Counted from the stretch's first letter, positions 446 through 47,084 are shown. The stretch is 64,000 nt of DNA from Raja brachyura (GCA_963514005.1 OY740788.1:88660001-88724000), one strand, 5' to 3'. The notes: generated by a model from the sequence alone, not told the origin. Program-made: numbers and translations.

Positions 446-790
446 TTGCAAACCCTCCGATCCTGATCCAATTCCCGAGGCTGGAGCGTGTCACTGAGGG
501 TCACACGGCACGGTTATGCTGCTCCATGGAGAACGCTGAAGTGGGAAACACTGACGTCCACTGGTACCGAGAACTACCCGGGCAGGACATGGAGTGGGTT
601 TTAACACACGAGGCAGGAGGCAGCGTACGAAGGAGACCAGGCTTCACTGAGCGGTTCCAGCCGTTCAAAGACGTCTCCAACAGCAGCTTCATCCTGAATG
701 TCACAAACGTGATGCTGAATGACTCTGCCGTCTATTACTGCACAGTGTGGGGAGATATCAGAGGGAATGGGACCCAGCTCAACGTAACCA
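446..790 (+). CDS. IgSF receptor exon: VJ-type Ig V domain A1 (phase 1/1)
   Basis: Acceptor ttttccctttcaAG|TT at 445/446; donor ACCA|GTGAGT at 790/791. Translation ANPPILIQFPRLERVTEGHTARLCCSMENAEVGNTDVHWYRELPGQDMEWVL...DSAVYYCTVWGDIRGNGTQLNVT shows the B-strand Cys, C-strand WY, DSAVYYC and a J-like GxGT-x-L-x-V in one exon. Confidence 0.9.
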
Positions 791-2673: not shown

Positions 2674-3021
2674 ATCCCCTGGATGATCCGGTCCTTATCC
2701 AGTCTCCGTCAGTCAGCAAGGTGGCAGAGGGTGTAACTGTGCAGTTGCAATGTGCCTTGCACAATGCCAGTGTGAATGACACTGACGTCCACTGGACCCA
2801 GCAGCGACCTGGGAAAAACAGCGAGTGGGTAATGAGCCACTTTGTGGATGGCAACGTCACCAGGTCCGGCTGTATCTCTGACCGCTTTAAGTCTTTCAGG
2901 AATGCCATGAGCAACAGTTACATTCTGACCATCGCCAATGTCTCCATCAATGATACTGCTGTCTACAACTGCAGTGTGTGGAGTTACATCTATGGAGCAG
3001 GGTCCCAGCTCAATGTAACTG
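2674..3021 (+). CDS. IgSF receptor exon: VJ-type Ig V domain B (phase 1/1)
   Basis: Acceptor cacacAG|AT at 2673/2674; donor ACTG|GTAAGT at 3021/3022. Translation PLDDPVLIQSPSVSKVAEGVTVQLQCALHNASVNDTDVHWTQQRPGKNSEWVM...DTAVYNCSVWSYIYGAGSQLNVT, with J-like YGAGSQLNV. Confidence 0.9.
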
Positions 3022-5174: not shown

Positions 5175-8100
5175 AATAGTAAGATTAAACGAGTTTACCA
5201 GTTTGAAGTTTGATCTTTATTTTATGAGGAGTTACGATGAGCGATTACGTGAAGAAGGTCGCCCCCACACATGCACGTCAATCTTCAAAGCAGCGGTGTG
5301 AAATCACAGAGAAGAGTTGTTGAACTAAAATAGTAAGATTAGATTTGACTAGAACTTACAGAAAGATCTTTATGTTACAAGGGTCAGGAGCGGAGGGCAC
5401 GTAATCACTCATCGTAACTCCTCATAAAATAAAGATCAAACTTCAAACTGGTAAGTTCTCGTTTAATCTTACTATTTTACTTCAGAGTCACATGAGTGAC
5501 CACGTGAAGACTTTGAAGCTCTGTGATTTCATGCCAAGGAACTAGTCCACGCGTCACAACTGCATCAATTGACCAGGACCTGTGAGAAAATTAATGCATT
5601 CAAACATGACATGGTTAAACAATACTAATGCGTTAATAACAAAAGAAATTAACAGTGACCCTTCTCACCCAGGGGGAAACTGTGAAACAGAACTTAAAAC
5701 AGAATCAGCAAAAATCCCCGGTCTGGCGATAGGCTTGTTATAAAACCTTTGGTACGTGCACTCATTCGACCATCCCGCAGTTGCTAGAATGTAGTCGCGA
5801 GGGACGTCCATATCCCTTGCTGCAGATGTCGATGCAGCCCTGATGGAATGAGGTTTAAAAGTGGCAGTGTCCACTCCTGCACACACCAGAACCTGTTTAA
5901 TCCATCTAGAGATGGTCTGCACTGTAACCTTTTATGAGGTTTGGTATAACTAACAAAAAAGGAGAGTTCCAGGCCTCTCTCAGTATGTGTGACACTACAC
6001 ACAATCGTGGATCTGAGGGGTATGCCATAAAACTCAATTTGAGCCCCAGTTTCCCTGGCCTCCTCTGCTTAATGAGATCATGAACAAAAAAGGTGATGCT
6101 ATTACAAGATGTACCCATACTGTCCAGTCTGAGTTTATGTAATGTCTGGACCCGTTGTGTTGAGGCCAGCACCATGAGCATGACTACTTTGAGTGTAAGA
6201 TGGTGCAGAGACAGAGATGAAGCTGGTTCCCATTGAAGGAGCAGCGCGAGAACCACGCTCACATCCCATATATGTGTGTACCTGGGCCTAGGGGGAGTGG
6301 AGTTAAAATTGCCCTTCATAAACTTAGTTATTAAAGGGTGAGATCCTACTGTGTGGTTCCCTTACCCCAGCCATAAATAATTTGACAAAGCACTCCGGGC
6401 ACTGTTAATGACACTGTAACTGAGCTTGTTATCATGAAAAAGTGACAAAAGAAACTCCAAAAACGTCCGTGATAGAAGCCGTGTCATATGAAATATTAGA
6501 GCGGGAACAGTACATCTCCCATTTCCTTATGTGAGTGATGTACTGTTTCTGTGTGCACTTCCTCCAGGCTGCAGATGACATCCATCGTACGGTCTGAAAG
6601 CCCGAGCCCCAGGAACGGTCTCCTCAGAATCTGCAAACCAATAAATTTATACGGTCATGAAGAGGGTGGCTTTCCCCTGTCACCCAGGGTTCCCGCTGAT
6701 TTCTGCTCTTGGGCACTGCCATAAAAGACTGTGTAATTAAAGCTAGAACCACTGGGAACCAATGCTGAGTCGGCCAGTCTGGTACTACCAAAATGCCAGA
6801 GGCGGAGTCTTGCTCGATTTTGGCCAAACATCGACTAATGAGACAGAATGGGGGAAAAATATACAAATATTTCCCACCCCAGTGTAGCGAGAATGCATCT
6901 ACTGCTACGGCCCCTGGGTCTGGCTCCCATGACACGTAAATTGGTAACTGATGATTAAGCCTGGATGCAAACAGATCAATGTCCGGTATACCATAACGAA
7001 GGACAATACCATTAACCACTTCGTGATACAACATCCATTCCTTACTGTCATTGAACTCTCGTGACCTGGTGTCTGCCATCGTGTTATATCTACTTGGTAA
7101 GTAGATAGCTGAAACCCAGATGTTTCTCGCAATACACCAGGGCCAGATGAGATTAGACAATTTATCACAGGATGCAGACTTACTGCCACCTATGTGATTA
7201 ATGTACGCTACTACTGTAGTATTGTCAATCTGAAGTTGGACATGCACATGATGCATGTTGGTACAAAAAGCCTTTAAGCCATAGAGTGCTCCCAACAACT
7301 CTAAGTAGTAAATACCGTGTGACTGAAGCATCGACGATTCCTGCAGATCCCATCTGCCACCTCAGCTCGAGACGGTATTAGTAGCACCCCAACCTAGCAC
7401 ACTGGCATCAGTCTGCAGGATAACTGATGGTGTATCGACCAAAATAGTACTAGGACAACACTGAATATTGGTAACCCACCATTGTAACTCAGCCAGGGCT
7501 TCAGCAGGCAATTGCATGGGTCTATCAAAGCAACCTCTATGAAGCTTGAGTGCCTGTTCCTTTGCACGCTGTACGATTTGGTAGTGCAAAGGCCCGAACT
7601 GAGCAGCTGGGAAAGTAGCCACTAATTTTCCAATTATGCTAGCCACATGTCTAATAGAAGGCTGATTATTAACAATGAGTTTCCTGCAGGCTTCAATTAA
7701 CTCTAATTGCTTGCCCCAAGGCCGAGTCAGTGACAAGTGTACTGAGTTAATGGTGAATCCCAAATAGTCAATTATCGCAGATGGCACCAATTTAGACTTA
7801 ACTGAATGGATTAAGAACCCCAGTTTCTTAAAAACTAGTTTTGTAGCTGAGACAGATCATTCAACTAATTCCAAAGTCCTCCCAATGACTAAGATGTTAT
7901 CCAAATATGCCATGCCTATATGTTTCTGTGCCCTGAGTAGCCCCAGAACTGGTTTTAGCAATTTAGTGAATAGTCTGGGGGCTGATGTTAATCCATTTGG
8001 CAATGCTTTAAACCACCACAACTGCTCCATCTAGTTAAACTTCAAAAATCTCCTGTGATCTTCATGAATGGTCACTGAATAGTAAGCAACTTTGAGGTCA

Positions 8101-9852: not shown

Positions 9853-10197
9853 TTGCAAATCCTCCGATCCTGATCCAATTCCCGAGGCTGGAGCGTGTGA
9901 CTGAGGGTCACACGGCACGGTTATGGTGCTCCATGGAGAAAGCTGAAGTGGGAAACACTGACGTCCACTGGTACCGAGAACTACCCGGGCAGGACATGGA
10001 GTGGGTTTTAACACACGAGGCAGGAGGCAGCGTACGAAGGAGACCAGGCTTCACTGAGCGGTTCCAGCCGTTCAAAGACGTCTCCAACAGCAGCTTCATC
10101 CTGAATGTCACAAACGTGATGCTGAATGACTCTGCCGTCTATTACTGCACAGTGTGGGGAGATATCAGAGGGAACGGGACCCAGCTCAACATCACTG
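9853..10197 (+). CDS. IgSF receptor exon: VJ-type Ig V domain A2 (phase 1/1), near-identical to A1
   Basis: Acceptor tttccattaaAG|TT at 9852/9853; donor ACTG|GTAAGT at 10197/10198. It is 345 bp like A1, with 9 substitutions counted by eye. Confidence 0.9.
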
Positions 10198-14300: not shown

Positions 14301-14530
14301 NNNNNNNNNNNNNNNNNNNNNNNNNNNNNNNNNNNNNNNNNNNNNNNNNNNNNNNNNNNNNNNNNNNNNNNNNNNNNNNNNNNNNNNNNNNNNNNNNNNN
14401 NNNNNNNNNNNNNNNNNNNNNNNNNNNNNTCTACGCCATCATCTGGTGCTGAAAGCAGGAAGCAGCCGTTCAAACAGCAGTTTACAGAGAGGTGGCAATG
14501 AATGCACTGTTAAGTAGACAGTGCATTAAG

Positions 14531-16897
14531 AGAGAGCAGGCTATTCTAGACTGGGTATTGAGTAATGAGGAAGGGTTAGTTACCAGTCTTGTTGTGAGTG
14601 GCCCCTTGGGCAAGAGTGACCATAATATGGTTGAGTTCTTCATTAGGATGGAGAGTGACAAAATTAAGTCAGAAACAAGGGTTCTGAACTTGAACAAAGG
14701 TAACTTTGAAGGTATGAGATGTGAATTGGCCAAGATAGACTGGCAGGTGATTCTTAAAGGGTTGACAGTGGATGTGCAATGGAAGGTATTTAAAGACTGC
14801 ATGGATGAAGTACAAAAGTTGTTCATACCAGTTTGGCAAAAGAATAAATCGGGGAAGGTGGTGCATCCATGGATAACAAGGGAAATCAGGGATAGTATAA
14901 AAACAAAAGATGAGGCATACAAATTTGCCAGAAAAAGCAGCCTACCGGAGGACTGGGAGAAATTCAGAATCCAGCAGAGGAGGACAAAGGGCTTAATTAG
15001 GAAAGGGAAAATAGATTATGAAAGGAAACTGGCAGGGAACATAAAAACTGACTGCAAAAGTTTTTATAGATATGTGAAGAGAAAGAGACTAGTTAAAACA
15101 AATGTTGGTCCCTTGCAGTCAGAAACAGGTGAATTGATCATGGGGAACAAGGACATGGCAGACCAATTGAATAACTACTTTGGTTCTGTCTTCACTAAGG
15201 AAGACATAAATAATCTGCCGGAAATAGCAGTGGAACGGGGGTCAAATAAGATGGAGGAACTGAGTGAAATCCAGGTTAGCCGGGAGGTGGTGTTGGGTAA
15301 ATTGAACGGATTGAAGGCCGATAAATCCCCAGGGCCAGATAGGCAGCATCCCAGAGTACTCAAGGAAGTAGCCATAGAAATAGTGGATGCATTAGTGATA
15401 ATTTTTCAAAATTCCTTAGATTCTGGAGTAGTTCCTGAGGATTGGAGGGTAGCTAATGTAACCCCACTTTTTAAAAAAGGAGGGAGAGAGAAAGCGGGGA
15501 ATTACAGACCAGTTAGTCTAACATCGGCAGTGGGGAAACTGCTAGTCAGTTATTAAAGATGGGATAGCAGCGCATTTGGAAAGTGGTGAAATCATTGGAC
15601 AAAGTCAGCATGGATTTACGAAAGGTAAATCATGTCTGACAAATCTGATAGAATTTTTCGAGGATGTAACTAGTAGAGTGGATAAGGGAGAACCAGTGGA
15701 TGTGTTATATCTAGACTTTCAGAAGGCTTTCGACAAGGTCCCGCATAAGAGATTAGCATATAAACTTAAAGCACACGGTATTGAGGGTTCAGTATTGATG
15801 TGGATAGAGAACTGGCTAGCAGACAGGAGGCAAAGGGTAGGAGTAAACGGGTCCTTTTCAGAATGGCAGGCAGTGACTAGTGGGGTACCGCAAGGCTCAG
15901 TGCTGGGATCCCAGCTATTTACAATATATATTAATGATTTGGACGAGGGAATTCAATGCAACATCTCCAAATCTGCAGATGATACCAAGCTGGGGGGTAT
16001 AGTTAGGTGTGAGGAGGATGCTTGGAGGCTGCAGGGTGATTTGGATAGGCTGAGTGAATGGGCAGATGCATGGCAGATGCAGTATAATGTGGATAAATGT
16101 GAGGTTATTCACTTTGGTGGCAAAAACATGAGGGTAGACTATTATCTGAATAGTGGCAGATTAGGAAAGGGGGAGATGCAACGAGACCTGGGTGTCATGG
16201 TACACCAGTCATTGAAAGTAGGCATGCAGGTGCAGCAGGCAGTGAAGAAAGCAAATGGTATGTTAGCATTCATAGCAAAAGGATTTGAGTATAGGAGCAG
16301 GGAGATTCTACTGCAGTTGTACAGGGTTTTGGTGAGGCCACACCTGGAGTATTGCGTACAGTTTTGGTCTCCAAATCTGAGGAAAGACATCCTTGCCATA
16401 GAGGGGGTACAGAGAAGATTCACCAGACTGATTCCTGGGATGTCAGGACTTTCATATGAGGAAAGATTGGATAGACTCGGCTTGTACTCGCTGGAATTTA
16501 GAAGATTGAGGGGGGATCTTATAGAAACTTACAAAATTCTTAAAGAGTTGGACAAGCTAGATGCTGGAAGATTGTTCCCGATGTTGGGGGAGTCCAGAAC
16601 AAGGGGTCACAGTCTAAGGATAAGGGGGAATTCCTTTAGGACCGAAATGAGGAAAACATTCTTTACACAGAGAGTGGTGAGTCTCTGGAATTCTCTGCCA
16701 CAGAAGGTAGTTGAGGCCAGTTCATTGGCTATATTTAAGAGGGCGTTAGATGTGGCACTTGTGGCTAAAGGGATCAGGGGGTATGGAGAGAAGGCAGGTA
16801 CGGGATACTGAGTTGGATGATCAGCCATGATCACATTGAATGGCGGTGCAGGCTCGAAGGGCCGAATGGCCTACTCCTGCACCTATTTTCTATGTTT
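14531..16897 (+). mobile_element. CR1 LINE (young, 5'-truncated ORF2 with one frameshift near 15550)
   Basis: ORFs 14492-15556 and 15576-16811 contain KSPGPD, NYRPVSLTS, LDFQKAFD, GVPQGSVLG and KSADDTKL (degenerate FADD). 3' tail GGGCCGAATGGCCTACTCCTGCACCTATTTTCTATG. Confidence 0.92.
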
Positions 16898-18925: not shown

Positions 18926-19577
18926 CGATAACAATTACCTGTTTTTTTCATCTCTGGCCTTTGTCCAACCATCTACCTGTCAAACCCCCTCACCTGTATT
19001 ACCTATTACCTGCCATGCTTGGTCCTGCCCATCCTCTCTTCTAGCTTCCTATCCTCCCCCCGCCCCCTCCCCACACACACAATCAGACTGAAGAAAGATC
19101 CCGACCCGAAACGTCGCCTATCCATATTCTCCAGGGATGCTGCCTGACATTGTGTCATATTTTGCAGGCAGAGGGGATTAGTTTAACTTGTCATCATATT
19201 CAGCACAGATGCAGCCTGTTCCTGTGCTACACTGCTATACAGTTCTATGTTTTATTACAGACATTCACTTTGTTCCACCCCCTGCCCTCCCCCAGGTTCC
19301 TGGCTACTTAGACCAACCTGGTCTCGCAGACCAACCCGCTTGCTCAGTTCTGATGAAGGATTTTCAACTTGCAGCGTAGATTGCATCTCTCCCCACAGAT
19401 GCAACCTGATCTGCTGAGTGTGTTCACCATTTTCTGTTTTTTATCCCAATCTGGGTTGCTTTGGAGAATGCTATGATGGGGCATCGATGATGGGGCATCA
19501 AGCCTGTGTGTTTGCTTAAAATGGGAGAAATAAACACAGGTTGCATCTAAACTCTATAAACCTTTCATATTTTTCAG

Positions 19578-19722
19578 AACAACCATATGAAAAGTTGTCT
19601 TTGAAAATCTTGGGCGCTATTGTAGCCTGTGTGCTCTTCATCCTCCTATGCAGCATCTTAGCAATAGCAGTGTGCTATATGAAAAAATGGGTGTGCTTTC
19701 AACACATATTTAAACCCGAAGG
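19578..19722 (+). CDS. IgSF receptor transmembrane exon (phase 1/2)
   Basis: Acceptor tttttcAG|AA; donor GG|GTAAGT. Translation EQPYEKLSLKILGAIVACVLFILLCSILAIAVCYMKKWVCFQHIFKPEG: a ~24-residue uncharged hydrophobic helix followed by KK. Confidence 0.88.
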
Positions 19723-19854
19723 GTAAGTAAAATGTATTTTCACATCTTGCTTTAATATAATATTGAATTAAGCATGGTGGGCGCAGGCGTTGAATCCAGC
19801 AAAGATCGGAGGAAAGAGTCGTGGAACTTGGAAGTTTCGTGGGGTGGAACAGTT

Positions 19855-20160
19855 CTGGCACGGGTACAAAGGTAGGGTTGCTGCCTGACAGCGCCAGAGA
19901 CACGGGTTTGATTCTGACTATGGGTGCTGTCTGTTCAGAGTTTGTCTGTTCTCTCCGTGACCTGCATGGGTTTGCTCCGGGTGCTCGTTTCCTCATACAT
20001 TCCAATGAAGTACAGGTTTGCTGGCTAATTGTAGGTAAAACAGTAAATGGTCCTAATGTGTAGGATAGTGTTATTGTGCGGGAATCGCTGGTCGGAGCAG
20101 ACTCAGTGGGCTGCAGGGCCTGTTTCCACGCTGTATCTTAAACTAAATTTAACTAAAACT
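19855..20160 (+). mobile_element. HE1-like tRNA-derived SINE
   Basis: tRNA-like head (GGTAGGGTTGCTGCCTGACAGCGCCAGAGAC...) and CR1-like tail (GGGCCTGTTTCCACGCTGTATCTTAAACTAAA). Confidence 0.7.
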
Positions 20161-20494
20161 TCAGTTATGTGGAGGGACTGGAGAGGCTGGGTCCCAATGT
20201 CAGCACATCCATCCTCAGATATAAGGCCCAAACTGCTCATAATACGCCAAACACGGTCTGAGCAGTGCCTCATTAAGCCTCAGCATTACAACCTATTTGG
20301 TATTGTAGCCCTCAAAATAAATGCTAGCTTTGCATTCACCTTCCTTACTACTCATTCCACTTGTAAAGTAATCTTTTGTGAATCCTGCACCAGCTCCCAA
20401 GTCCCTTTGCACCTCTGATTTCTGAATTCTCTCCCCATTTAGAAAATAAGACAATTTTATATGATATTTGAACAGCCCGCCACATTGCGGACCT

Positions 20495-20790
20495 TGCTTT
20501 AAACTTTAGAGATATAGTGTGGGAATAGGCCCTTCAGCCCACTGAGCCCAGTGATCACTAACACTATCCTACTCCCTGGGGCAAATTTACAATTTGTACC
20601 AAAGACAACTCATCTGCAAACCTGCACATCTTTGGCGTGACGGAGGAAATTGGAGGACCCGGAGAAAACGCACGCAGGTCACGGGGAGAATGTACAAGCT
20701 TTGTATAGACAGCAGCCGTAGTCAGGATCGAATCTGTGTCTCTAGCGCTGTAAGGCAGCAACTCTACCGCTGTGTAATTGTGGCGCCACT
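20495..20790 (-). mobile_element. HE1-like SINE (inverted relative to 19855-20160)
   Basis: Reverse complement of the same head and tail sequence. Confidence 0.7.
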
Positions 20791-21055
20791 TTTTGTTGTC
20801 TGTGGCTGTAAAGCTCAAATGCTGTAACACCACATTTGTTTCTCGTGTCTTTCATCTTTGCACCACCTGTTGTACTTGTATCGGCTTTGATTGTATAGTA
20901 TGATTTGACTGGATAGCATGAAAATAAAACTTCACTGTACCTCGGTACACATACGAACAATAAACCAAGACCAATGCAGTCTCGTTGTTGTTCTTCAGAG
21001 ACATTCAACAAATATAAATAGTTCACTGACAGTGTGTTCTATATCATTTCGCTAG

Positions 21056-21099
21056 GAACTCTACTGAAGACCTGAACACAGTCTATTCGACAGTTACAG
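21056..21099 (+). CDS. IgSF receptor cytoplasmic exon 1 (44 nt, ITSM TVYSTV)
   Basis: Acceptor atttcgctAG|G; donor ACAG|GTAAAA. In frame with the phase-2 TM exon, reading (G)NSTEDLNTVYSTVT. Too short for the ORF track. Confidence 0.8.
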
Positions 21100-22469
21100 G
21101 TAAAAAGTTAATTTCAGTGCTCATATTGGGGATTGCTTCAAATGTTGGCTATGTTCAGTAATGATTCCAAATGTAAGAACATAAGAAACAGTCAAGAAAG
21201 TCGCCCATTGTTGCACCATTCTCAACTTCAACTATTCAACCTCTATGGCTTTTCAATTCCTTTAAACACACTCAACAAATTAGCTTCACAGTTCTCCGAC
21301 AGAGAAATGCACATATTCAAAGCACTCTTCAAAGAAAATTCTTCACAACTTAGTCATGGTGCACTAACCATATCTGAGTGAACCTGTGGAACAATCTTAT
21401 TCAAGCACTCAAGGTCTCCATCAAGGCAAATGAAATAGAGTTTTGGTCGATGTTTTGGGTCGTGATTATAGAGAGCAGATAGCAAACAGAAAGAGGTGAA
21501 GGGGCGGTGTGAGGCAGGGCAGGCAGTAATAGATAGAAACACAAGAAGTGGGGAAAGGGGCAGATGAGCCAAGTGGGAGCAGATGGTGGGAATAGAGGCT
21601 GAAAGTTACTGTGGAAACAAGAGATGCTGGAATCCTACAGATGTTGGAATCTGGAAAGTCAGAAGGTGATATGCGGAAACAATGGTCCAATAGTGCTTTT
21701 ATTGTCACATTTGCAAAGTGCTAACACAATGAAATTATTTATCATACAAACAGTCCAGTAGAATGTAGCCGATCCCTAATTAGCAAGTGTACAGATATAG
21801 TCTACTGGGCCCGCATGCAACAGGTGCCATCTAGTGGTGCTATTTTCAAAGTCCTCGCTCTAGTTCTGATGAGCAGTGCCTGTTCCAGGCAAGTCCCAGG
21901 CTGTTGGAGATCTCCAGCCATTTCGTTCCTTCGACGCCACGCTACCTGATCAGATTCCAGCATCTGCAGTCTCTGTGTCCCTTGGAGAGCAGCCTACCAC
22001 CAAGTACTGCTGCCTCTGCCCTCCTCCACTAAATGGACACAACATCAGTCTTAAACGAATTATTGGATATATATCAATTCCTGCAGCCTCTCGAAAGATG
22101 CCTGCTGTAAGTGACAAATTAATGGCAGAATGGCAGAAAGACCAACATTAACACAGACTCTCAAATTTTAATCCATTTGATAGTGGCTGAATTTAAATCT
22201 ATGATAGTGAACTAAAGGGCATATGTCCATGAATTAATTAAATGATAATCCTTTACATTCAATTGAGAAGTTTACGGATCCACCAAAAGGCAGCTTCTAC
22301 AATACTGCACTGAAGCATAGGCCTACGCAGTTTGTCTTAACTCCCTAAAAAGGGCCTGATCCACAGCCTGCAGACTCCAGAACTAAGCCAGACGTCTAGC
22401 CTTTAAGGCATATGTGAGCCTTGTCATGCCCCTGTCAACAGTGAGAAACTCTTCATACACATGACATCA

Positions 22470-22730
22470 CGATGGTGCAGTGGTAGAGTTGCTGTCTTAC
22501 AGCACCAGCGACCTGGGTTCAATCCTGACTACGGGCACTGTCTGTACGGAGATTCACATTCGCCCTGTGACCATGTGGGTTTTCCCAATTGCTCTGGTTT
22601 CCTCCCACACTTCAAAGACGTACAGGTTTGTCCCTAGTGTGTGGGATAGTGTTAGTGTACGGGGATTGCTGGCCGGTGTATACTTGGTGGCTGAAGGGCC
22701 TGTTTCCACGCTGTATGTCTAGACTAAACA
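22470..22730 (+). mobile_element. HE1-like SINE
   Basis: GGTGCAGTGGTAGAGTTGCTGTCTTACAGCACCAGCGACCTGGGTTCAATCC (A/B boxes) plus a CR1-like tail. Confidence 0.7.
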
Positions 22731-22810
22731 TATGTGTTCTGCAGAATGTTGCAGCTATCTGAATGCACTGGATAAGGGATGGCAATAAGTTTGTATGAAG
22801 GGGTGAAGGG

Positions 22811-23755
22811 GTGGTAAATTGGATTAGTAAGTATGCAGATGATACCAAGATAGGGGGTGTTGTGGATAATGAAGAGGATTTCCAAAGTCTACAGAGTGAT
22901 TTAGGCCAGTTGGAAAAATGGGCTGAAAGATGGCAGATGGAGTTTAATGCTGATAAATGTGAGGTGCTACACCTTGGCAGAACAAATCAAAATAGGACGT
23001 ACATGGTAAATGGTAGGGAATTGAAGAATACAGTTGAACAGAGGAATCTGGGAATAACCATGCATAGTTCCTTGAAGGTGGAATCTCATATAGATAGGGT
23101 GGTAAAGAAAGCTTTTGGTATGCTAGCCTTTATAAATCAGAGCATTGAGTATAGAAGCTGGGATGTAATGTTAAAATTGTACAAGGCATTGGTGAGACCA
23201 AATCTGGAGTATGGTGTACAATTTTGGTCGCCCAATTATAGGAAGGATGTCAACAAAATAGAGAGGGTACAGAGGAGATTTACTAGAATGTTGCCTGGAT
23301 TTCAACAGCTAAGTTCCAGAGATAGGTTGAATAAGTTAGGTCTTTATTCTCTGGAGCGAGAAGGTTAAGGGGGGACTTGATAGAGGTCTTTAAAATGATG
23401 AGAGGGATAGACAGAGTTGATGTGGACAAGCTTTTCCCTTTGAGAATAGGGAAGATTCAAACAAGAGGACATGACTTTATAATTAAGGGACAGAGGTTTA
23501 GGGGTAACATGAGGGGGAACTTCTTTACTCAGAGAGTGGTAGCGGTGTGGAATGAGCTTCCAGTGGAAGTGGTGGCGGCAGGTTCGTTGGTATCATTTAA
23601 AAATAAATTGGATAGGCATATGGATGAGAAGGGTATGGAGGGTTATGGTATGAGTGCAGGCAGGTGGGACTAAGGGAAAAAAGTTGTTCGGCACGGACTT
23701 GAAGGGCCGAGATGGCCTGTTTCCGTGCTGTAATTGGTATATGGTTATATGGTAT
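22811..23755 (+). mobile_element. CR1 LINE 3' fragment
   Basis: ISKYADDTKIGG and LVRPNLEYGVQFW; tail (TATATGGT)n. Confidence 0.85.
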
Positions 23756-23824
23756 ACTGCACTATGATTTCATTTTGATTATCACCCGTATGTGACAACT
23801 CAACAGATTCTTATTTGATTTCAG

Positions 23825-23868
23825 TTGAAACCAAGACCAATACAGAACCAGCCCCCAATGTCACTATG
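23825..23868 (+). CDS. IgSF receptor cytoplasmic exon 2 (44 nt, phase 1/0)
   Basis: Acceptor ttatttgatttcAG|TT; donor ATG|GTAAGT. Reads (V)ETKTNTEPAPNVTM and bridges the phase between the flanking exons exactly. Confidence 0.78.
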
Positions 23869-24109
23869 GTAAGTACCAGACATAAATACAAACTGCTGGA
23901 GCAACTCGGTGGGTCAGGCAGCATCTGCGGAAAGAAATGGACAGGCGACATTTTGGCCCATGCCTTTAAATGAATGCCATTACTTCCTTTTTAGACCTAT
24001 ACAAGCCATCTCAGGTTTACAAGTGTCCACCTTACTCCCTTAACATTAGAACCAACTTCCATAAATATCAATACATTCAAAGTCTTACGTACATACATCA
24101 CGTTCATAC

Positions 24110-25120
24110 CTGTGACTAGTGGTGAGCCACAGGGTTCGGTGCTGGGCCCGTTACTGTTTGCCATCTACAGCAATGATTTGGATGAGAATATACAGGGCAT
24201 GATTAGCAAGTTTGCTGATGATACAAAAGTTATTGTTTTGCAGATAGTGAGGATGGTTGTGAACGATTGCAGCAGGATCTGGATCGATTGGCCAGGTGGG
24301 CGGAGGAATGGGTGATGGAATTTAATACAGAGAAGTGTGAGGTGTTGCATTTTGGGACGTCAAACTAGGGCAGAACCTACACAGTAAATGGTAGGCCTCT
24401 GGGTAGTGTTGTAGAGCAGAGGGATCTAGGAGTACAGGTGCATGGTTCCATGAAGGTCGAGTCGCAGGTAGATAAGGTGGTCAAAACGGCTTTTGGCACT
24501 TTGGCCTTCATCAGTCTGAGTATTGAGTACAGAAGTTGGGAGGTCATGTTGCAGTCAAGACGTTGGTGAGACCGCATTTAGAATATTGTGCTCAGTTCTG
24601 GGCACCATGTTATAGGAAAGATGTTGTCAAGCTTGAAAGTGTTCAGAAAAGATTAACAAGGATGTTGCCAGGACTAGAGTGTGTGAGCTGTAGGGAGAGG
24701 TTGAGTAGGCTGGGTCTCTATTCCATGGAGCGTAGGAGGATGAGGGGAGATCTTATAGAAGTATATAAAACCATGAGAGGAATAGATCGGGTAGATGCAC
24801 AGTCTTTTACCCAGAGTAGGGGAATCGAGGACCAGACATAGGTTCAGGGTGAAGGGGAAACGATTTAATTGGAATCCAAGGGGTGACTTTTTCACACAGA
24901 CGGTGGTGGGTGCATGGAACAAGCTGCCAGAGGAGGTAGTTGAGGCTGGGACAAGCCCATCGTTTAAGAAACAGTTGGACAGGTACATGGATAGGACAGG
25001 TTTGGATGGTTATGGACCAAGCGCAGGCAAGTGAGACTGGGGTAGATGGGACATTGTTGGCTGGTGTGGGTGAGTTGGGCTAAAGGGCCCGTTTCCACTG
25101 TATTACTCTATGACTATAAC
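24110..25120 (+). mobile_element. CR1 LINE 3' fragment
   Basis: [34 protein letters not shown]; tail TCTATGACTATAAC. Confidence 0.85.
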
Positions 25121-25304
25121 TAGTTTGCTCCCTTTTCCCCTTTTGCTAATTGCTCTTTCTTATTCATCTTGTATATTTATGATGCCATTCGTTATAAACT
25201 GTGATGGTATGGAGTGATTTTGTGTATTTTCTGACTGATGAACAAACTCAGCTTATGGATTCAGCAGTCTCTTGTGCCATTTACATTCTGTTTTTCTGTT
25301 ACAG

Positions 25305-25421
25305 TCGGCGGAATCGGAGATATTCTATGCTGATATTCAGTTTGTACGACAGAATGCCAAAGCTCCAACCTTAGCAGTCAGCGAGGGGACAACCGAATAT
25401 GCTGCCATCAAACGTGCATAG
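25305..25421 (+). CDS. IgSF receptor terminal coding exon (ITIM IFYADI and ITSM TEYAAI)
   Basis: Acceptor tttttctgttacAG|TCG; reads SAESEIFYADIQFVRQNAKAPTLAVSEGTTEYAAIKRA* with stop TAG at 25419-25421. Confidence 0.88.
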   Translation, partial: SAESEIFYADIQFVRQNAKAPTLAVSEGTTEYAAIKRA

Positions 25422-25737
25422 TGACTGACTAAATGTCACCCCTCAGGGTTCTTCTGGCTGGTATCTGTCAACGCACAGAACTCCCGAATGTCACAGATCT
25501 TCGTTCTGGTTCTTAGGCAAATGCCTCAATATTTTCTTCATCTTAATCTCACATAAAGTGATAGCCGACAGGTTGATCTACTGTCACATTTATTATATTA
25601 ATGTAGTTTCCCAGTCTACGCAACAACTCACAACTCATACATTCGCAGTTTCCTTTGTTATAATTTAAGACTCTAGTTTCAGATCAAAGCAAATAATTTC
25701 AATTTACATCACTCACTCTTCCCAAAGCTTTATATGT

Positions 25738-27863: not shown

Positions 27864-29012
27864 GTCAAGTCAAGTCACTTTTATTTCTGTAGCACATTTA
27901 AAAAACAACTCTCGTTGACCAAAATGTTTTACATTGGTGGAGGTACTAACGTTATACAACAGTGGTTCATAGATGAAGTACATACATAAGTACAAACATG
28001 TAGCCCTCCCTCAGAGGACGTCAAGAAAGGCTTGAGAGTAAAGATGAGTTTTAAGTCTCGACTTAAAAGAGTCGATGGAGGGGGCAGTTCTGATGGGAAG
28101 AGGGATGCTGTTCCACAGTCTAGGAGCTGCAACCGCAAAGGCACGGTCGCCCCTGAGCTTATGCCTAGACCGCGGGATGTTCAGCAACCCCAAGTCGGCC
28201 GATCTGAGGGACCTGGAGGTGGTGCGGTGGGTGAGCAGACTTTTAATGTAGGTGGGGGAAAGCCCATTGAGGGCTTTGTAGACAAAGAGGAGGGTCTTGA
28301 AATTTATTCGGAACCGCACAGGGAGCCAGTGGAGAGAGGCCAGGATTGGGGTGATGTGGTCCCTTTTTCGGGTGCACGTCAGGAGTCTCGCTGCGGCGTT
28401 TTGGACCAGTTGCAGGCGGGACCGGGAAGATTGGCTGATGCCAGTGTAGAGGGAGTTGCAGTAATCTAGGCGGCAGGAGATAAATGTGTGGATGATCTTT
28501 TCTAGGTCATCAAACTGGAGGAATTGTTTTATTTTAGCTATCATCCGAAGCTGGAAGAAGCTAGCTTTTACCACGGCATTGACTTGTTTGTCAAATTTCA
28601 GTGCTGACTCAAATATCACGCCAAGGTTTGTGACGTGAGGTTTGAGTAGTGGGGTAAGGTTTCCAAGGCTGCCTGCTATCATTTTGATTGAGTCCGAGGG
28701 GCCGAGAAGGATGACCTCAGACTTACTCTCGTTTAGTTGGAGGAAGTTCTGGGCCATCCAGCACTTTATATCCTTGAGGCAGCGGGTAAGGTTAAGCAGA
28801 ATTGATTGTTTTTTGGGCTTCAGGGGGAGGTACAGTTGTGTATCGGCTGCGTAGCAATGGAAGGAAATGCCGTGCCTTTCAATGACTTGGCCTAAGGGGA
28901 GCATATACAGGGAGAAGAGAATGGGGCCAAGGATGGAACCTTGTGGAACCCCACAGCGGAGGCTAGCTGGGGAGGAGAAAGAGTTGCCTATGTTAGTAGA
29001 GAAACTCCTACC
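27864..29012 (-). mobile_element. L2-clade LINE 3' part (RT C-terminus)
   Basis: ORF 28011-29111 contains CGVPQGSILGP, FHCYAADTQLY, RLDYCNSL, LQLVQNAAAR, LHWLPV, RAFAVAAPRLWN; tail (TTGAC)n at 27864-27877. Confidence 0.88.
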
Positions 29013-29426
29013 TTTGAATGTCCCAGCTACATTCAGACTGGGCATCACAAGAATTAGCACTACTGGTTTGGATGTGAGGGTCCAATGAGAGAACATTGTT
29101 GTGACGGACAATCTGAAGTATGCTGCATTGCACGAGACCTCCTGCGATCACCTCCTGCACATTGTGTGGTGTGTATTATGCTTGTAAGTGATTCGTTTTT
29201 TCCTTGTGTGCATTATGTACAAAAAATACAAAGTATTGATTTTTACAACATAGGCCTGTAAATATTAACAAAACTGTCAGAATATCTTAGCTTAATAAAA
29301 TAATAAAATTCTGAGTGCAATTTTTTGTTCATTAAATGCTGAGATTTGGTGTTGATAGAAAGCCAGATTGGTTGCTGTTGTATTTACAGTATACAGTAAA
29401 TGGCAGGACTTTTAGGAACATGGATG

Positions 29427-42788: not shown

Positions 42789-43714
42789 CTGCCAGGGACA
42801 GAGCGGGGAGTTAGAGGAACTGCGGAGAGCTCAGAGATCACCACACACCAGCTGCCCGCCCAGTGGCACCAGCTGCCCGCCCCAAACTTGCCACACAGCA
42901 TGGAGGAAAGCAGAGTGGCTTGTGAGCCTGGGAGCCATTAGACCCCCCCAGCTCCAATTACCAGGACCCCATTTATTCCCCCCCCCCCCCTCCCCGCCAC
43001 CCGCCCCCTCACGCTACATTCTTTGGGACTCCATTCGACCCCCCCCCCCCCCCCAACTCTGCTTAGTCTCCTCATCACCTCCAATTCTTGGGACCCCATT
43101 ATTCCCTCTCTCACCCTCTCACAGCTACCTCTTCACCCTCTGATATTTGGGATTCCATTAGACCCCCCCTCACCTTCTAGCACCCCCCACCCGCCTTCAT
43201 AGGAATCCAATATCCACTCCCTCATCCCCTCATAAGCCCACAGCCACCCCCTCACTGATCTCTGGGATACCAATAGACCCTCCATAGACCCCCTTTAGCC
43301 ACTCCTTCACCACTTCCTGGGAACCCAATATCCCCTTCCCCCATCTCCTTAGATACCTCCTCTCCAATCACTGGGACCCCCATTAGACCCTTCTAGACAC
43401 TTGCACCCCCTCCAGGAATCCCTTAGCTAAACCCTGACCACCCAATCTCTAACACATCCATGAACCCACCCCTCATCCTACAGAGCCCCTCAAACTCTCT
43501 CTGTAAGCCCCCCCCCCCCCCCCACCCACTCCTTCCTCTCCCTCTGACTCCCACAGATGTCCAGCATTGGCAGTGAAGGTTTGCAGCCTCGTCCTCTCCT
43601 CTTGGACCCAAATGAGCCACAGTGTCCACATTCCCTTCCCTCCCAGACTCCTGCCACACCACCCATTCCCACCTCCAGTCCCACCACAAATCTCCCCTCC
43701 GGCCGCTGACCTAC

Positions 43715-43947
43715 CTTGGGGGCACATCGATGGTCTGAGAGGAGGGGACGCTGGGAGAGGCTTTGGTGTGCTCCCTCTCCTGCTCCTGGAGGCGGGGGGA
43801 CCTGCGGCTCTCGCCCAGCCGCACGTCCTCTGCCCGCCGTAGGGAGCGCAGGTCCAGCTCCCGGACGTAGACCCGGACCTCGTTGTCCACATGGTTGTGT
43901 TGCTCCACCACTCCTGGGTACTCACGGCCACCGTGCGTCAGGTATAC
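43715..43947 (-). CDS. znf395: ZNF395-like coding exon 2
   Basis: VYLTHGGREYPGVVEQHNHVDNEVRVYV...SSQTIDVPP(R); phase 0/2. Confidence 0.85.
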
Positions 43948-45061
43948 CTGGGGGTGACAGAGGAAGGTCATCTTCAGCAACCAGGGCAGGGTGGCTTACA
44001 GACATCAGATCAGGGGAAGAGGCACGGGGAGAGGAGTTAGGCAGGGGTATGAATGATGGGGTGTTGGGGTCTCACCTGTGGTGGGTTGTGTCATGTTTTG
44101 TTGAGATTGATGTTATATTTACAAGTTATTCACATTTTTAGCTTTACAAAATCCCACTTTGAGAAGGATTTCTTCACATCTGAACTGGTAGCAGCTATGA
44201 CATCACAATCAGATTGTAGCCCTACTGGCTACAATGATGCTATCCCAGGACACCGAGTCCTTGGCAGCAAATGTCCTTCAGGGGAAGAATCTGCCAGCCT
44301 AACCCAGCACATATGTGACTGCAAAGCCTTTTATTGCTCTCTAAATTGAAAGTTTAATGATAAGATTTGGATAACAAAAGATGATATCAAATCACATTAA
44401 AGAATCAAAAAAAATATTAGTGCAATTGCATTTTTTTTTAAATGAGAGAGCCGACCAGCACAGTTGGGGGCTATAGATGAGTGGTGGAATATTGCATTGA
44501 GGAATGGGTTGTGTTGGGGAACAGGTGAGTGGTGGAATCTTACGTTGGGGAATGGGTTGCTTTGGGTGACCAGGCCACCCTTGGGGGCTATGGGTGAGTG
44601 GTCGAATATTGCATTGATGGAATAGGTTGCGTTGGGGGACCAGGCCTCCCATGTGACANNNNNNNNNNNNNNNNNNNNNNNNNNNNNNNNNNNNNNNNNN
44701 NNNNNNNNNNNNNNNNNNNNNNNNNNNNNNNNNNNNNNNNNNNNNNNNNNNNNNNNNNNNNNNNNNNNNNNNNNNNNNNNNNNNNNNNNNNNNNNNNNNN
44801 NNNNNNNNNNNNNNNNNNNNNNNNNNNNNNNNNNNNNNNNNNNNNNNNNNNNNNNNNNNNNNNNNNNNNNNNNNNNNNNNNNNNNNNNNNNNNNNNNNNN
44901 NNNNNNNNNNNNNNNNNNNNNNNNNNNNNNNNNNNNNNNNNNNNNNNNNNNNNNNNNNNNNNNNNNNNNNNNNNNNNNNNNNNNNNNNNNNNNNNNNNNN
45001 NNNNNNNNNNNNNNNNNNNNNNNNNNNNNNNNNNNNNNNNNNNNNNNNNNNNNNNNNNNNN

Positions 45062-45560
45062 TAGAGGGAGAGGGGGGTAGAGGGAGAGGGGGGTAGAGGG
45101 AGAGGGGGGTAGAGGGAGAGGGGGGTAGAGGGAGAGGGGGGTAGAGGGAGAGGGGGGTAGAGGGAGAGGGGGGTAGAGGGAGAGGGGGGTAGAGGGAGAG
45201 GGGGGTAGAGGGAGAGGGGGGTAGAGGGAGAGGGGGGTAGAGGGAGAGGGGGGATAGAGGGAGAGGGGGGATAGAGGGAGAGGGGGGATAGAGGGAGAGG
45301 GGGGATAGAGGGAGAGGGGGGATAGAGGGAGAGGGGGGATAGAGGGAGAGGGGGGATAGAGGGAGAGGGGGGATAGAGGGAGAGGGGGGATAGAGGGAGA
45401 GGGGGGATAGAGGGAGAGGGGGGATAGAGGGAGAGGGGGGATAGAGGGAGAGGGGGGATAGAGGGAGAGGGGGGATAGAGGGAGAGGGGGGATAGAGGGA
45501 GAGGGGGATAGAGGGAGAGGGGGATAGAGGGAGAGGGGGATAGAGGGAGAGGTGAGGTGG
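45062..45560. repeat. G-rich tandem repeat (TAGAGGGAGAGGGGGG 16-mer switching to a 17-mer) after gap N 44659-45061
   Basis: Seen directly in the sequence. Confidence 0.92.
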
Positions 45561-46247
45561 GAGTGGGGGGGAGGTCAGAACTGGGGGAAGTGGGGGATAG
45601 AGGGACAGGAGGGGGTAGGGAGAGGGGTATGGAGGGAGGTAGGGGAAAGGAGAGGGAAGGTGAAGAGGAAGTGGAGGGAGTGCTGGGGATGAGGGAGAAT
45701 GGAGAAGGATAGGGGTATGAAGAGGGATGGCGAGGCGCAGTTGGGGGAGGGCTGCCATGACTCGCGTCAAAGGGGATCTCTGGCATCACAACGGGAACCT
45801 ATCAGCCGTGAGTGCGCAGTTGGGGATTATGGGTCAGTGGTGGAATATTGCCTTGGGGATGGGGCCCAACGGGTCCCACTTGGTTTAGTTATATAAATAA
45901 TTATCAGGTCTCCCTTCAATATCCAACACTCCAGAGGAAACAAACTAAGTTTGTCCAAACTCTAAAGCCTCTACATCCTGCCTTTAATGGGACAACCAGA
46001 ACTGCGTACTCCACATGCGGCCTAACCAAACTTTTATAAAGCTGAAACTCAGCTTTTTGAGTCTTGNNNNNNNNNNNNNNNNNNNNNNNNNNNNNNNNNN
46101 NNNNNNNNNNNNNNNNNNNNNNNNNNNNNNNNNNNNNNNNNNNNNNNNNNNNNNNNNNNNNNNNNNNNNNNNNNNNNNNNNNNNNNNNNNNNNNNNNNNN
46201 NNNNNNNNNNNNNNNNNNNNNNNNNNNNNNNNNNNNNNNNNNNNNNN

Positions 46248-46460
46248 CGAACTTACCTTGGACTTCGCTCCAAGTTCGCCCCGCATTCCGCCACTGACCC
46301 GACCTCCGCGCGGCCTCTGCTGCCGGTTTGGTTGCGCTTGCCGGCGCATGCTGGTGGGAACGGCCCTGTACAGGGGATCACCCGACCTCCGCGCGGCCCC
46401 CGCTTCTAGTTTGATCGCGTTCATCGCATAGAGTTGCATGCTGGTGGGACAGGCCCTTTA
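46248..46460. mobile_element. Right end of a probable PIF/Harbinger-type MITE (left part lost in gap N 46067-46247)
   Basis: Ends GGTGGGACAGGCCCT followed by TTA, with internal subterminal repeats (ACCCGACCTCCGCGCGGCC twice). Confidence 0.4.
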
Positions 46461-46575
46461 TACTCAATGCCCATGCTGGCTTGATTCCTACTGCCCTCAG
46501 TTCCTCTAGCTTGAGCTCCTGCCCCCTCCCCCCCCACCACAAGTAGATGACCCACAGACGTCAGGGCAGGCTTAC

Positions 46576-46827
46576 CTTCTGGCCGGGCTGGAGTTTGAAG
46601 TGTGTCACGCTCTGGAAGCCTGGGCCAATGATGTTGTCCTCGCTGTACTCCATGAAACGGCCATCCTCAAACGATACAGTATACGAGGTGTTGCCGCTCC
46701 CACTGTCCAGCCGGAATGCTTGGATCAGGCCAGGGATCAGCATCCCATCACCGGAAGGGCTGGGGGTGTGGACGGGGGCGCCCAGCAGGGAGCGCTTTCC
46801 CAGACGTCTAGACAGCACGCTGACCAT
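46576..46827 (-). CDS. znf395: ZNF395-like first coding exon
   Basis: ATG at 46827-46825: MVSVLSRRLGKRSLLGAP...IIGPGFQSVTHFKLQPGQK, like the ZNF395 start MASVLSRRLGKRSLLG. An upstream acceptor at 46836-46834 implies a non-coding upstream exon. The eight exons total 1371 nt, or 456 aa plus stop. Confidence 0.88.
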
Positions 46828-47084
46828 TCTGCCCTGCAGCAAAGAGAGTAAACACAGGGCACAGTGTTAGGCTTGGGCTGGACAATCAACAAACTCCTGC
46901 ATCCAGCCCACATCATCTAACTTCAGACGGGACCCTCAGTGGCATGTTAGGGGCAGCATAGTGGTGCAGCAAGTAGAGCCACTGCCTCCCGGTGCCCGTG
47001 ATCCAGGTTTGATTACAACTTCCTGTATTGTCTATGTGGAGTTTGCATGCTCTCCCCATGACCAGCGTGAGCTTGCCCCAGCTT

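Follow-up and report, generated by a model that had tools for sequence, protein, structure and literature searches.

Paired families of inhibitory and activating receptors of the immunoglobulin (Ig) superfamily are the closest described systems to a gene of Raja brachyura that we report here, part of which lies in a 64,000-nucleotide stretch of the 2.7 Gb genome (GCA_963514005.1 OY740788.1:88660001-88724000, equivalent to G000:C8:88660001-88724000; hereafter the window, in whose own numbering features are given unless C8 is named). CEACAMs have an N domain without Cys followed by C2 domains, SIRP-alpha has two pairs of the tyrosine motifs of which our gene has one, NITRs combine a V with an I domain, MDIR, CD300 and TREM share a second disulfide in the C-C′ strands and lack a J motif, and NCR3/NKp30 is linked to the major histocompatibility complex (MHC) and has a charged transmembrane (TM) segment. 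Cartilaginous fish, the most ancient lineage to possess antibodies and T cells, have few known paired inhibitory/activating families.

Judged by its sequence, the Raja brachyura gene is quite probably the inhibitory member of such a paired family, with four Ig domains of VJ type and a conserved tail of a single inhibitory motif of the immunoreceptor tyrosine-based kind (ITIM) plus a single switch motif (ITSM) predicted to recruit SHP-1/SHP-2. An earlier note on this DNA had described the tail of a single receptor; the tail has stood up, but that account missed the VJ ectodomain, the hypervariable outer domain and the sister genes that carry an activation motif of the immunoreceptor tyrosine-based kind (ITAM). 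The paired VJ-receptor family, rather than the tail observation, is the larger finding, and it lies mostly outside the interval 19578..25421 that the tail occupies. It provides candidate natural killer or myeloid regulators across sharks and rays at one locus, with an ITAM of their own instead of an adaptor. This shark-and-ray receptor family appears to be previously undescribed: no description was found in the literature searched, although key subscription papers fell outside that search and absence from print is not established, and the family is not mentioned in the available parts of PMC4016189, PMC6795676, PMC11599192 and PMC3031540. RefSeq names for the family models are automatic (uncharacterised, SIRP-alpha-like, pIgR-like or Ig heavy chain-like).

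Gene structure and splicing

The whole receptor forms one open frame of 599 amino acids, comprising a leader, four V domains encoded by phase 1 exons, a TM segment and a tail, and the predicted product is a membrane protein of type I whose four Ig domains are VJ-type. Two exons lie upstream of the window, those of the leader (G000:C8:88613204-88613252, 47 kb upstream) and of the outer V domain, Va or domain 1 (G000:C8:88647703-88648065, 12 kb upstream). The remainder are on the plus strand of the window: VJ domain 2, of the stalk type Vc (446..790, a 345-nt phase 1 exon); domain 3, of type Vb (2674..3021, 348 nt, with an N-glycan sequon immediately preceding the second Cys); domain 4, again Vc (9853..10197, 345 nt, 97% identical to domain 2); the TM exon (19578..19722, phase 1 to 2); a first cytoplasmic exon with Y542 in the variably kept motif TVYSTV (21056..21099); a second that forms a Tyr-free spacer (23825..23868); and the last coding exon (25305..25421), which encodes the ITIM IFYADI, with Ala at +1 and Phe at +5, the ITSM TEYAAI and the stop.

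The four 3′ exons (145, 44, 44 and 117 nt) have AG/GT ends and pyrimidine tracts, and read in a single frame that reproduces exactly the tail previously assembled from two 44-nt exons and a 117-nt exon, its last two tyrosines, Y569 (IFYADI) and Y593 (TEYAAI), being 24 residues apart as claimed. The TM core is without charge here, as are all family TM segments (0/66 charged), and the four Cys expected in or beside it are present. To call these exons hidden was an overstatement, since RefSeq models (P0024 and P0025, for example) include the tail. By themselves neither the small exons nor the motif match is out of the ordinary, the exons because the same tail is found in RefSeq models for other sharks and rays; 44 nt qualifies as a micro-exon only by a looser cut-off.

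A GxG J-like segment closes each V exon, and V and J are therefore germline-joined. The ectodomain contains 21 N-glycan sequons, and the nearest named proteins, from skates, are 92-94% identical. The predicted fold of Va (predicted local distance difference test score 94) matches antibody and T-cell receptor (TCR) V domains (Z up to 17.2, root-mean-square deviation 2.0, 111 aligned residues); SIRP, NKp30 and CD8 are not among the PDB sequence and fold matches listed, which does not exclude them. A sequon just ahead of the second Cys occurs in 19 of 37 Vb domains, in a comparison whose Vc class contains some mis-sorted domains, and the J-region Phe is replaced by Arg in the Vc domains of the Raja brachyura gene. 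Both features would impede V-V pairing of the antibody kind, and the stalk domains therefore probably stand unpaired in that sense.

Several known receptor classes were rejected by comparison with this architecture. A secreted sigma-2 light chain (VJ-C1) is ruled out by the lack of a C1 domain and the presence of a TM segment and tail, and the V+I architecture of NITRs by domains that are all V-set, with two or three Cys. MDIR, compared by description only, is CD300/TREM/pIgR-like (PMC3031540), and membership of that group fails on two Cys per domain (three in Vb) and the GxG J motif; like NITRs of teleosts and MDIR of skates, the genes here are nevertheless multigene activating and inhibitory Ig superfamily receptors of fishes. 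The tail resembles that of PD-1/BTLA in having an ITIM with Phe at +5 and then a TEYA-type ITSM about 25 residues on, but CD28-family genes have a single V domain (PMC11599192), unlike this multi-V multigene cluster, and CD28/PD-1 membership is ruled out by the four V domains here and at least two in most homologue models. An NCR3/NKp30-like gene is likewise rejected, by the uncharged TM segments and by MHC class I matches that fall on C25 and small contigs, with none of the 12 best candidates on C8.

Splicing of the tail was examined in public reads over 19450-25720 only. Run X1, of unrecorded kind, yielded a 625-letter contig at depth 42.4 that matches the genome from 25304 onward, preceded by 159 extra letters incompatible with intron sequence. 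This length equals 43+44+72, that is, two 44-nt exons (one base being shared) and 72 nt of the TM exon, which places the contig end at 19651, immediately past a variant at 19650. The depth of 42.4 recurs at exon places 19717 and 21083, and X1 depth is 0 at the listed intron places adjoining them, places which X5 and X6 cover. From this contig arithmetic and depth we infer that TM exon-44-44-117 splicing occurs. No RNA data set is listed as containing the last exon, a point that is neutral as evidence. The same contig carries the 3′ untranslated region, which extends from 25422 to at least 25720 on the plus strand.

Skipping of either or both 44-nt exons loses both distal motifs, and Mobula model P0003 stops exactly where skipping of the first 44-nt exon, or intron read-in, would terminate; a short isoform resembling that of CEACAM1 is possible by this route.

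Conservation of the tail

Motif matches alone are within chance: TxYxx[IV] occurs 16 times in the window against 25.6 in shuffles, and a tandem ITIM-ITSM once, where shuffles average 0.25 and 22 of 100 contain at least one. The tail pattern is real because it is conserved, both in two paralogues of the same genome that have all four exons with intact splice sites and in complete tails of other sharks and rays. A search with one V domain as query found 85 homologues. Their tails are of this type in 34, of a second inhibitory type in 9 and of a third type in 23, and the other 19 have no tail that could be classified; when a single V domain was used to look for homologues of near length, there were no matches. 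Leaving aside two truncated tails and P0041, in which the pattern failed (both distal Tyr are present, the first absent), 31 complete tails of this type were counted from 17 named shark and ray species, isoforms included.

The earlier note had set conservation of its three Tyr motifs across sharks and rays as a test, which the distal ITIM and ITSM pass. Both distal Tyr are kept in 31/31 tails, at a spacing of 24 in 22 and of 23 in the other 9. The second Tyr lies in YAxxxF in every tail and fits the ITIM consensus [ILVS]xYxx[ILV] in 17, or 28 if Met is permitted at -2, while the third conforms to TxYxx[IV] in 27, with Glu at -1 of this last ITSM in 26. Ala at ITIM +1 has been reported to promote SHP-1 binding (PMC8631942) and Phe at +5 to aid SHP-2 binding, SHP binding sites being conserved in sharks (PMC12151841). 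The distal ITIM+ITSM pair is thus likely the signalling unit, a predicted role, and the gene has the sequence marks of ITIM/ITSM receptors, conserved copies of both motifs in a cytoplasmic tail.

The first of the three motifs claimed for the tail, TVYSTV, fared less well. If SAP/EAT-2 bound it, as in SLAM receptors, the receptor would become activating in SAP-positive cells. TVYSTV does fit TxYxxV with the hydrophobic residue at -1 needed for CD150-type SAP binding (PMC12151841), and the full motif is kept in 22 of the 31 tails (the Tyr in 26); it is lost or altered in the other 9, including the two named skate orthologues, P0024 and P0025, its Tyr being gone in Pristis, Rhinoraja, Heptranchias and one Mobula model and its Thr in one Raja brachyura paralogue. 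Glu at -1, which the last ITSM has in most tails, has been argued to make a SAP switch unlikely for PD-1 (PMC12151841), and the ectodomain differs from the V+C2 of CD2/SLAM. Of the inhibitory or switch receptor previously proposed, the inhibitory part is therefore favoured by the conserved ITIM+ITSM and SHP-type spacing, the three-motif switch is weakened by its variable first motif, and we regard a SLAM-like switch as a weak and unlikely reading.

The same tyrosines could instead serve mainly in trafficking, as YxxPhi signals of a receptor for adhesion or uptake, since all three fit Yxx[ILV] and the second inhibitory tail type has a non-canonical Cys at ITIM -2. That second type keeps the spacing of 24 in 9/9 tails, however, and the fixed spacing, Ala+1/Phe+5, conserved T-E-Y-A and ITAM-bearing sisters fit SH2 docking better, leaving a mainly trafficking role very improbable.

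Paired genes and the variable outer domain

The gene belongs to a cluster of ~0.5 Mb, at about 88.18-88.69 Mb on C8 beside ZNF395, that holds three genes with inhibitory tails and four whose TM exon differs, being of a 135-nt type. The latter go on to encode both a YxN motif and an ITAM, in which a phase 0 intron divides the first YxxL, a split characteristic of ITAM exons (PMC2832619); in the one intact gene, with its TM segment at G000:C8:88250732, both the YxN motif and the split YxxL are present. In other species, 19 of the 23 third-type tails contain YxxL/I-x6-8-YxxL/I. Linked inhibitory and ITAM genes share near-identical ectodomains (Vc 94-99% identical), as paired receptors do.

In its workings this arrangement is like CEACAM1/CEACAM3, where inhibitory and ITAM sisters also differ in their tail exons, with a phase 0-split ITAM, a YxN motif (as in marsupials) and an outer N domain homogenised by conversion (PMC2832619). 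It implies no kinship of ectodomains, which here consist solely of disulfide-bonded VJ domains, unlike those of CEACAMs.

Bamboo-shark-type models P0006, P0014 and P0089 have hybrid tails, in which a TM segment of the second inhibitory type precedes YxN and an ITAM or ITAM-like sequence, and which suggest tail swapping among members.

SIRP genes offer another comparison, and the gene might be a cartilaginous-fish SIRP-alpha orthologue, a sensor of self that binds CD47. Both have a VJ-type V domain, a variable outer domain and a similar ITIM-ITSM pair at the same spacing of 24, and several RefSeq models are auto-named SIRP-alpha-like. The genes here lack C1 domains, however: only V exons were mapped, and C1-set scores on three homologues gave no passing stretch and lay on V domains. 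The activating sisters carry an intrinsic ITAM and no charged TM segment, in place of DAP12 coupling, and the neighbours differ; SEP-domain matches, candidates for the SIRP neighbour NSFL1C, which belongs to that domain family, lie on C4 and C22, not on C8. SIRP-alpha orthology thus seems very unlikely, in a comparison whose V-domain tree contained no SIRP sequence.

Variation in the outer domain is concentrated in its loops. Among six Va copies (80-91% identical; a seventh, more distant copy was left out), the proportions of nonsynonymous (pN) and synonymous (pS) differences are 0.205 and 0.167 in the loops and 0.021 and 0.006 in the framework; ten Vc copies show purifying selection (pN 0.011 < pS 0.054). 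Upstream intron distances are at most 0.016 among four of five Va copies, the four-gamete test fails in 70 of 153 Va site pairs, and the intact ITAM gene is identical to one inhibitory gene across the Va C-C′ and CDR2 (complementarity-determining region 2) segments. Va is thus a recombination patchwork common to both gene kinds, which points to gene conversion because so many site pairs are incompatible and because segments are shared between ITAM-type and inhibitory genes.

For this probable inhibitory receptor and its ITAM-bearing sisters, we propose that the outer Va would bind ligand through its CDR-like loops, with the glycosylated Vb and Vc as stalk. Once a Src-family kinase had phosphorylated Y569 and Y593, the tandem SH2 domains of SHP would dock on them, Ala at +1 pointing to SHP-1. 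The ITAM sisters would act through Syk/ZAP70 to counter ligands by which the inhibitory receptor is exploited, and similarity between the binding domains of both gene kinds would be maintained by gene conversion. Two-site SH2 binding by the distal pair is predicted; PD-1 has the Tyr pair Y223/Y248 (PMC7078208), and SHP-2 activation depends on linker length (PMC10231330).

Some observations weigh against this account. The PD-1 ITSM alone is indispensable (PMC7078208), and the spacing is for that reason no proof of two-site binding. Three of the four ITAM-type genes are broken as assembled, one by a frameshifted TM exon, one by a stop within the ITAM and one by missing ITAM exons. Because isoforms and near-copies are among the 85 homologues, these are not independent. 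Support for the splicing comes from the single run X1. In the Va loops pN does not exceed pS significantly, 17% of bootstraps giving pN<=pS, so that conversion or relaxed constraint could explain the loop variation.

Origin of the V domains

The 35 family domains compared are on average 35-42% identical to sigma-2-type light-chain V domains, and at most 33% to 19 other outgroup rows, the class labels of which are our assumption, as are those of the sigma-2 rows save one cluster member named Ig sigma-2 by its source. A CDR1 of 8 residues with a W41-C104 span of 59 is found in 21 of 27 stalk domains, in 7 of 8 sigma-2 rows and in 1 of 19 others. CDR1 length 8 is described as fixed for sigma-2, which is germline-joined in several lineages (PMC5985310). 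Sigma-2 (also sigma-cart, type I or NS5) thus has the nearest V domains, of like CDR1 length and span; it differs from the receptors in having a C1 domain and in lacking membrane attachment, a signalling tail, tandem V exons and the Phe to Arg change in the J region of Vc.

A first tree of 62 rows did not resolve the base. In a 40-row tree, which omits 21 family rows and one long TCR-beta row, the family forms one group (support 92/88), and is joined with coelacanth VJ-C1 and sigma-2 at a weak 68/28 only. Lambda as sister was rejected (p=0.007), and the NITR V domain as sister was not (approximately unbiased test, p=0.26; the two NITR-like rows are presumed to be such). Related V domains are present in the chimaera Callorhinchus; no clear bony-vertebrate member was seen among the best 150 representatives, of which names were looked up for 20 only, and atlas matches to generic V-set, ITIM-receptor and light-chain clusters serve as leads only.

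We suggest, tentatively and as one possibility, that early cartilaginous fish captured a germline-joined sigma-2 VJ exon, which was then multiplied and came to be fused with ITIM/ITSM and ITAM tails, the CDR loops of the outer domain being still diversified by conversion. If so, part of an antigen receptor was turned back to an innate paired-receptor family, a shark and ray counterpart of KIR/SIRP/NITR-type receptors. The nearness to sigma-2 makes it testable whether VJ-type innate receptors are ancestral to, or derived from, antigen receptors.

Many germline-joined sigma-2- and lambda-type light-chain VJ exons were also observed elsewhere in the genome (L061-L066, on G000 C29, C47 and C30).

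Genomic neighbourhood

Neighbours of the cluster are a CHRNA2/4-type gene, ZNF395, a HlyIII-family gene and MCM3, in a synteny scan of the 150 longest of 1022 candidate open reading frames. ZNF395, whose exons (DUF4772) lie on the minus strand at window positions 43714-46866, is the next gene downstream. It and a family member are apparently on one chromosome in 6/6 comparable shark ZNF395 rows, and the chromosome is therefore conserved. A search of the genome for SH2 domains gave 62 unlabelled matches, none assignable to SAP or SHP genes.

The introns and flanks of the gene are full of retroelement-like reading frames and repeats, for example at 6627-7856 (minus strand), 14453-16700 (plus) and 28014-29147 (minus). 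About 550 kb downstream, at G000:C8:89235640-89241351 (L020, L051), a Vc domain 92% identical to that of this gene runs without an intron into a 1904-codon repeat frame rich in Asn, Gly and Ser that has no Pfam match, with a divergent V exon 4.7 kb ahead of it. The same arrangement of V domain and repeats is seen in bamboo shark protein P0098, which suggests a conserved V-tipped, mucin-like member of the family.

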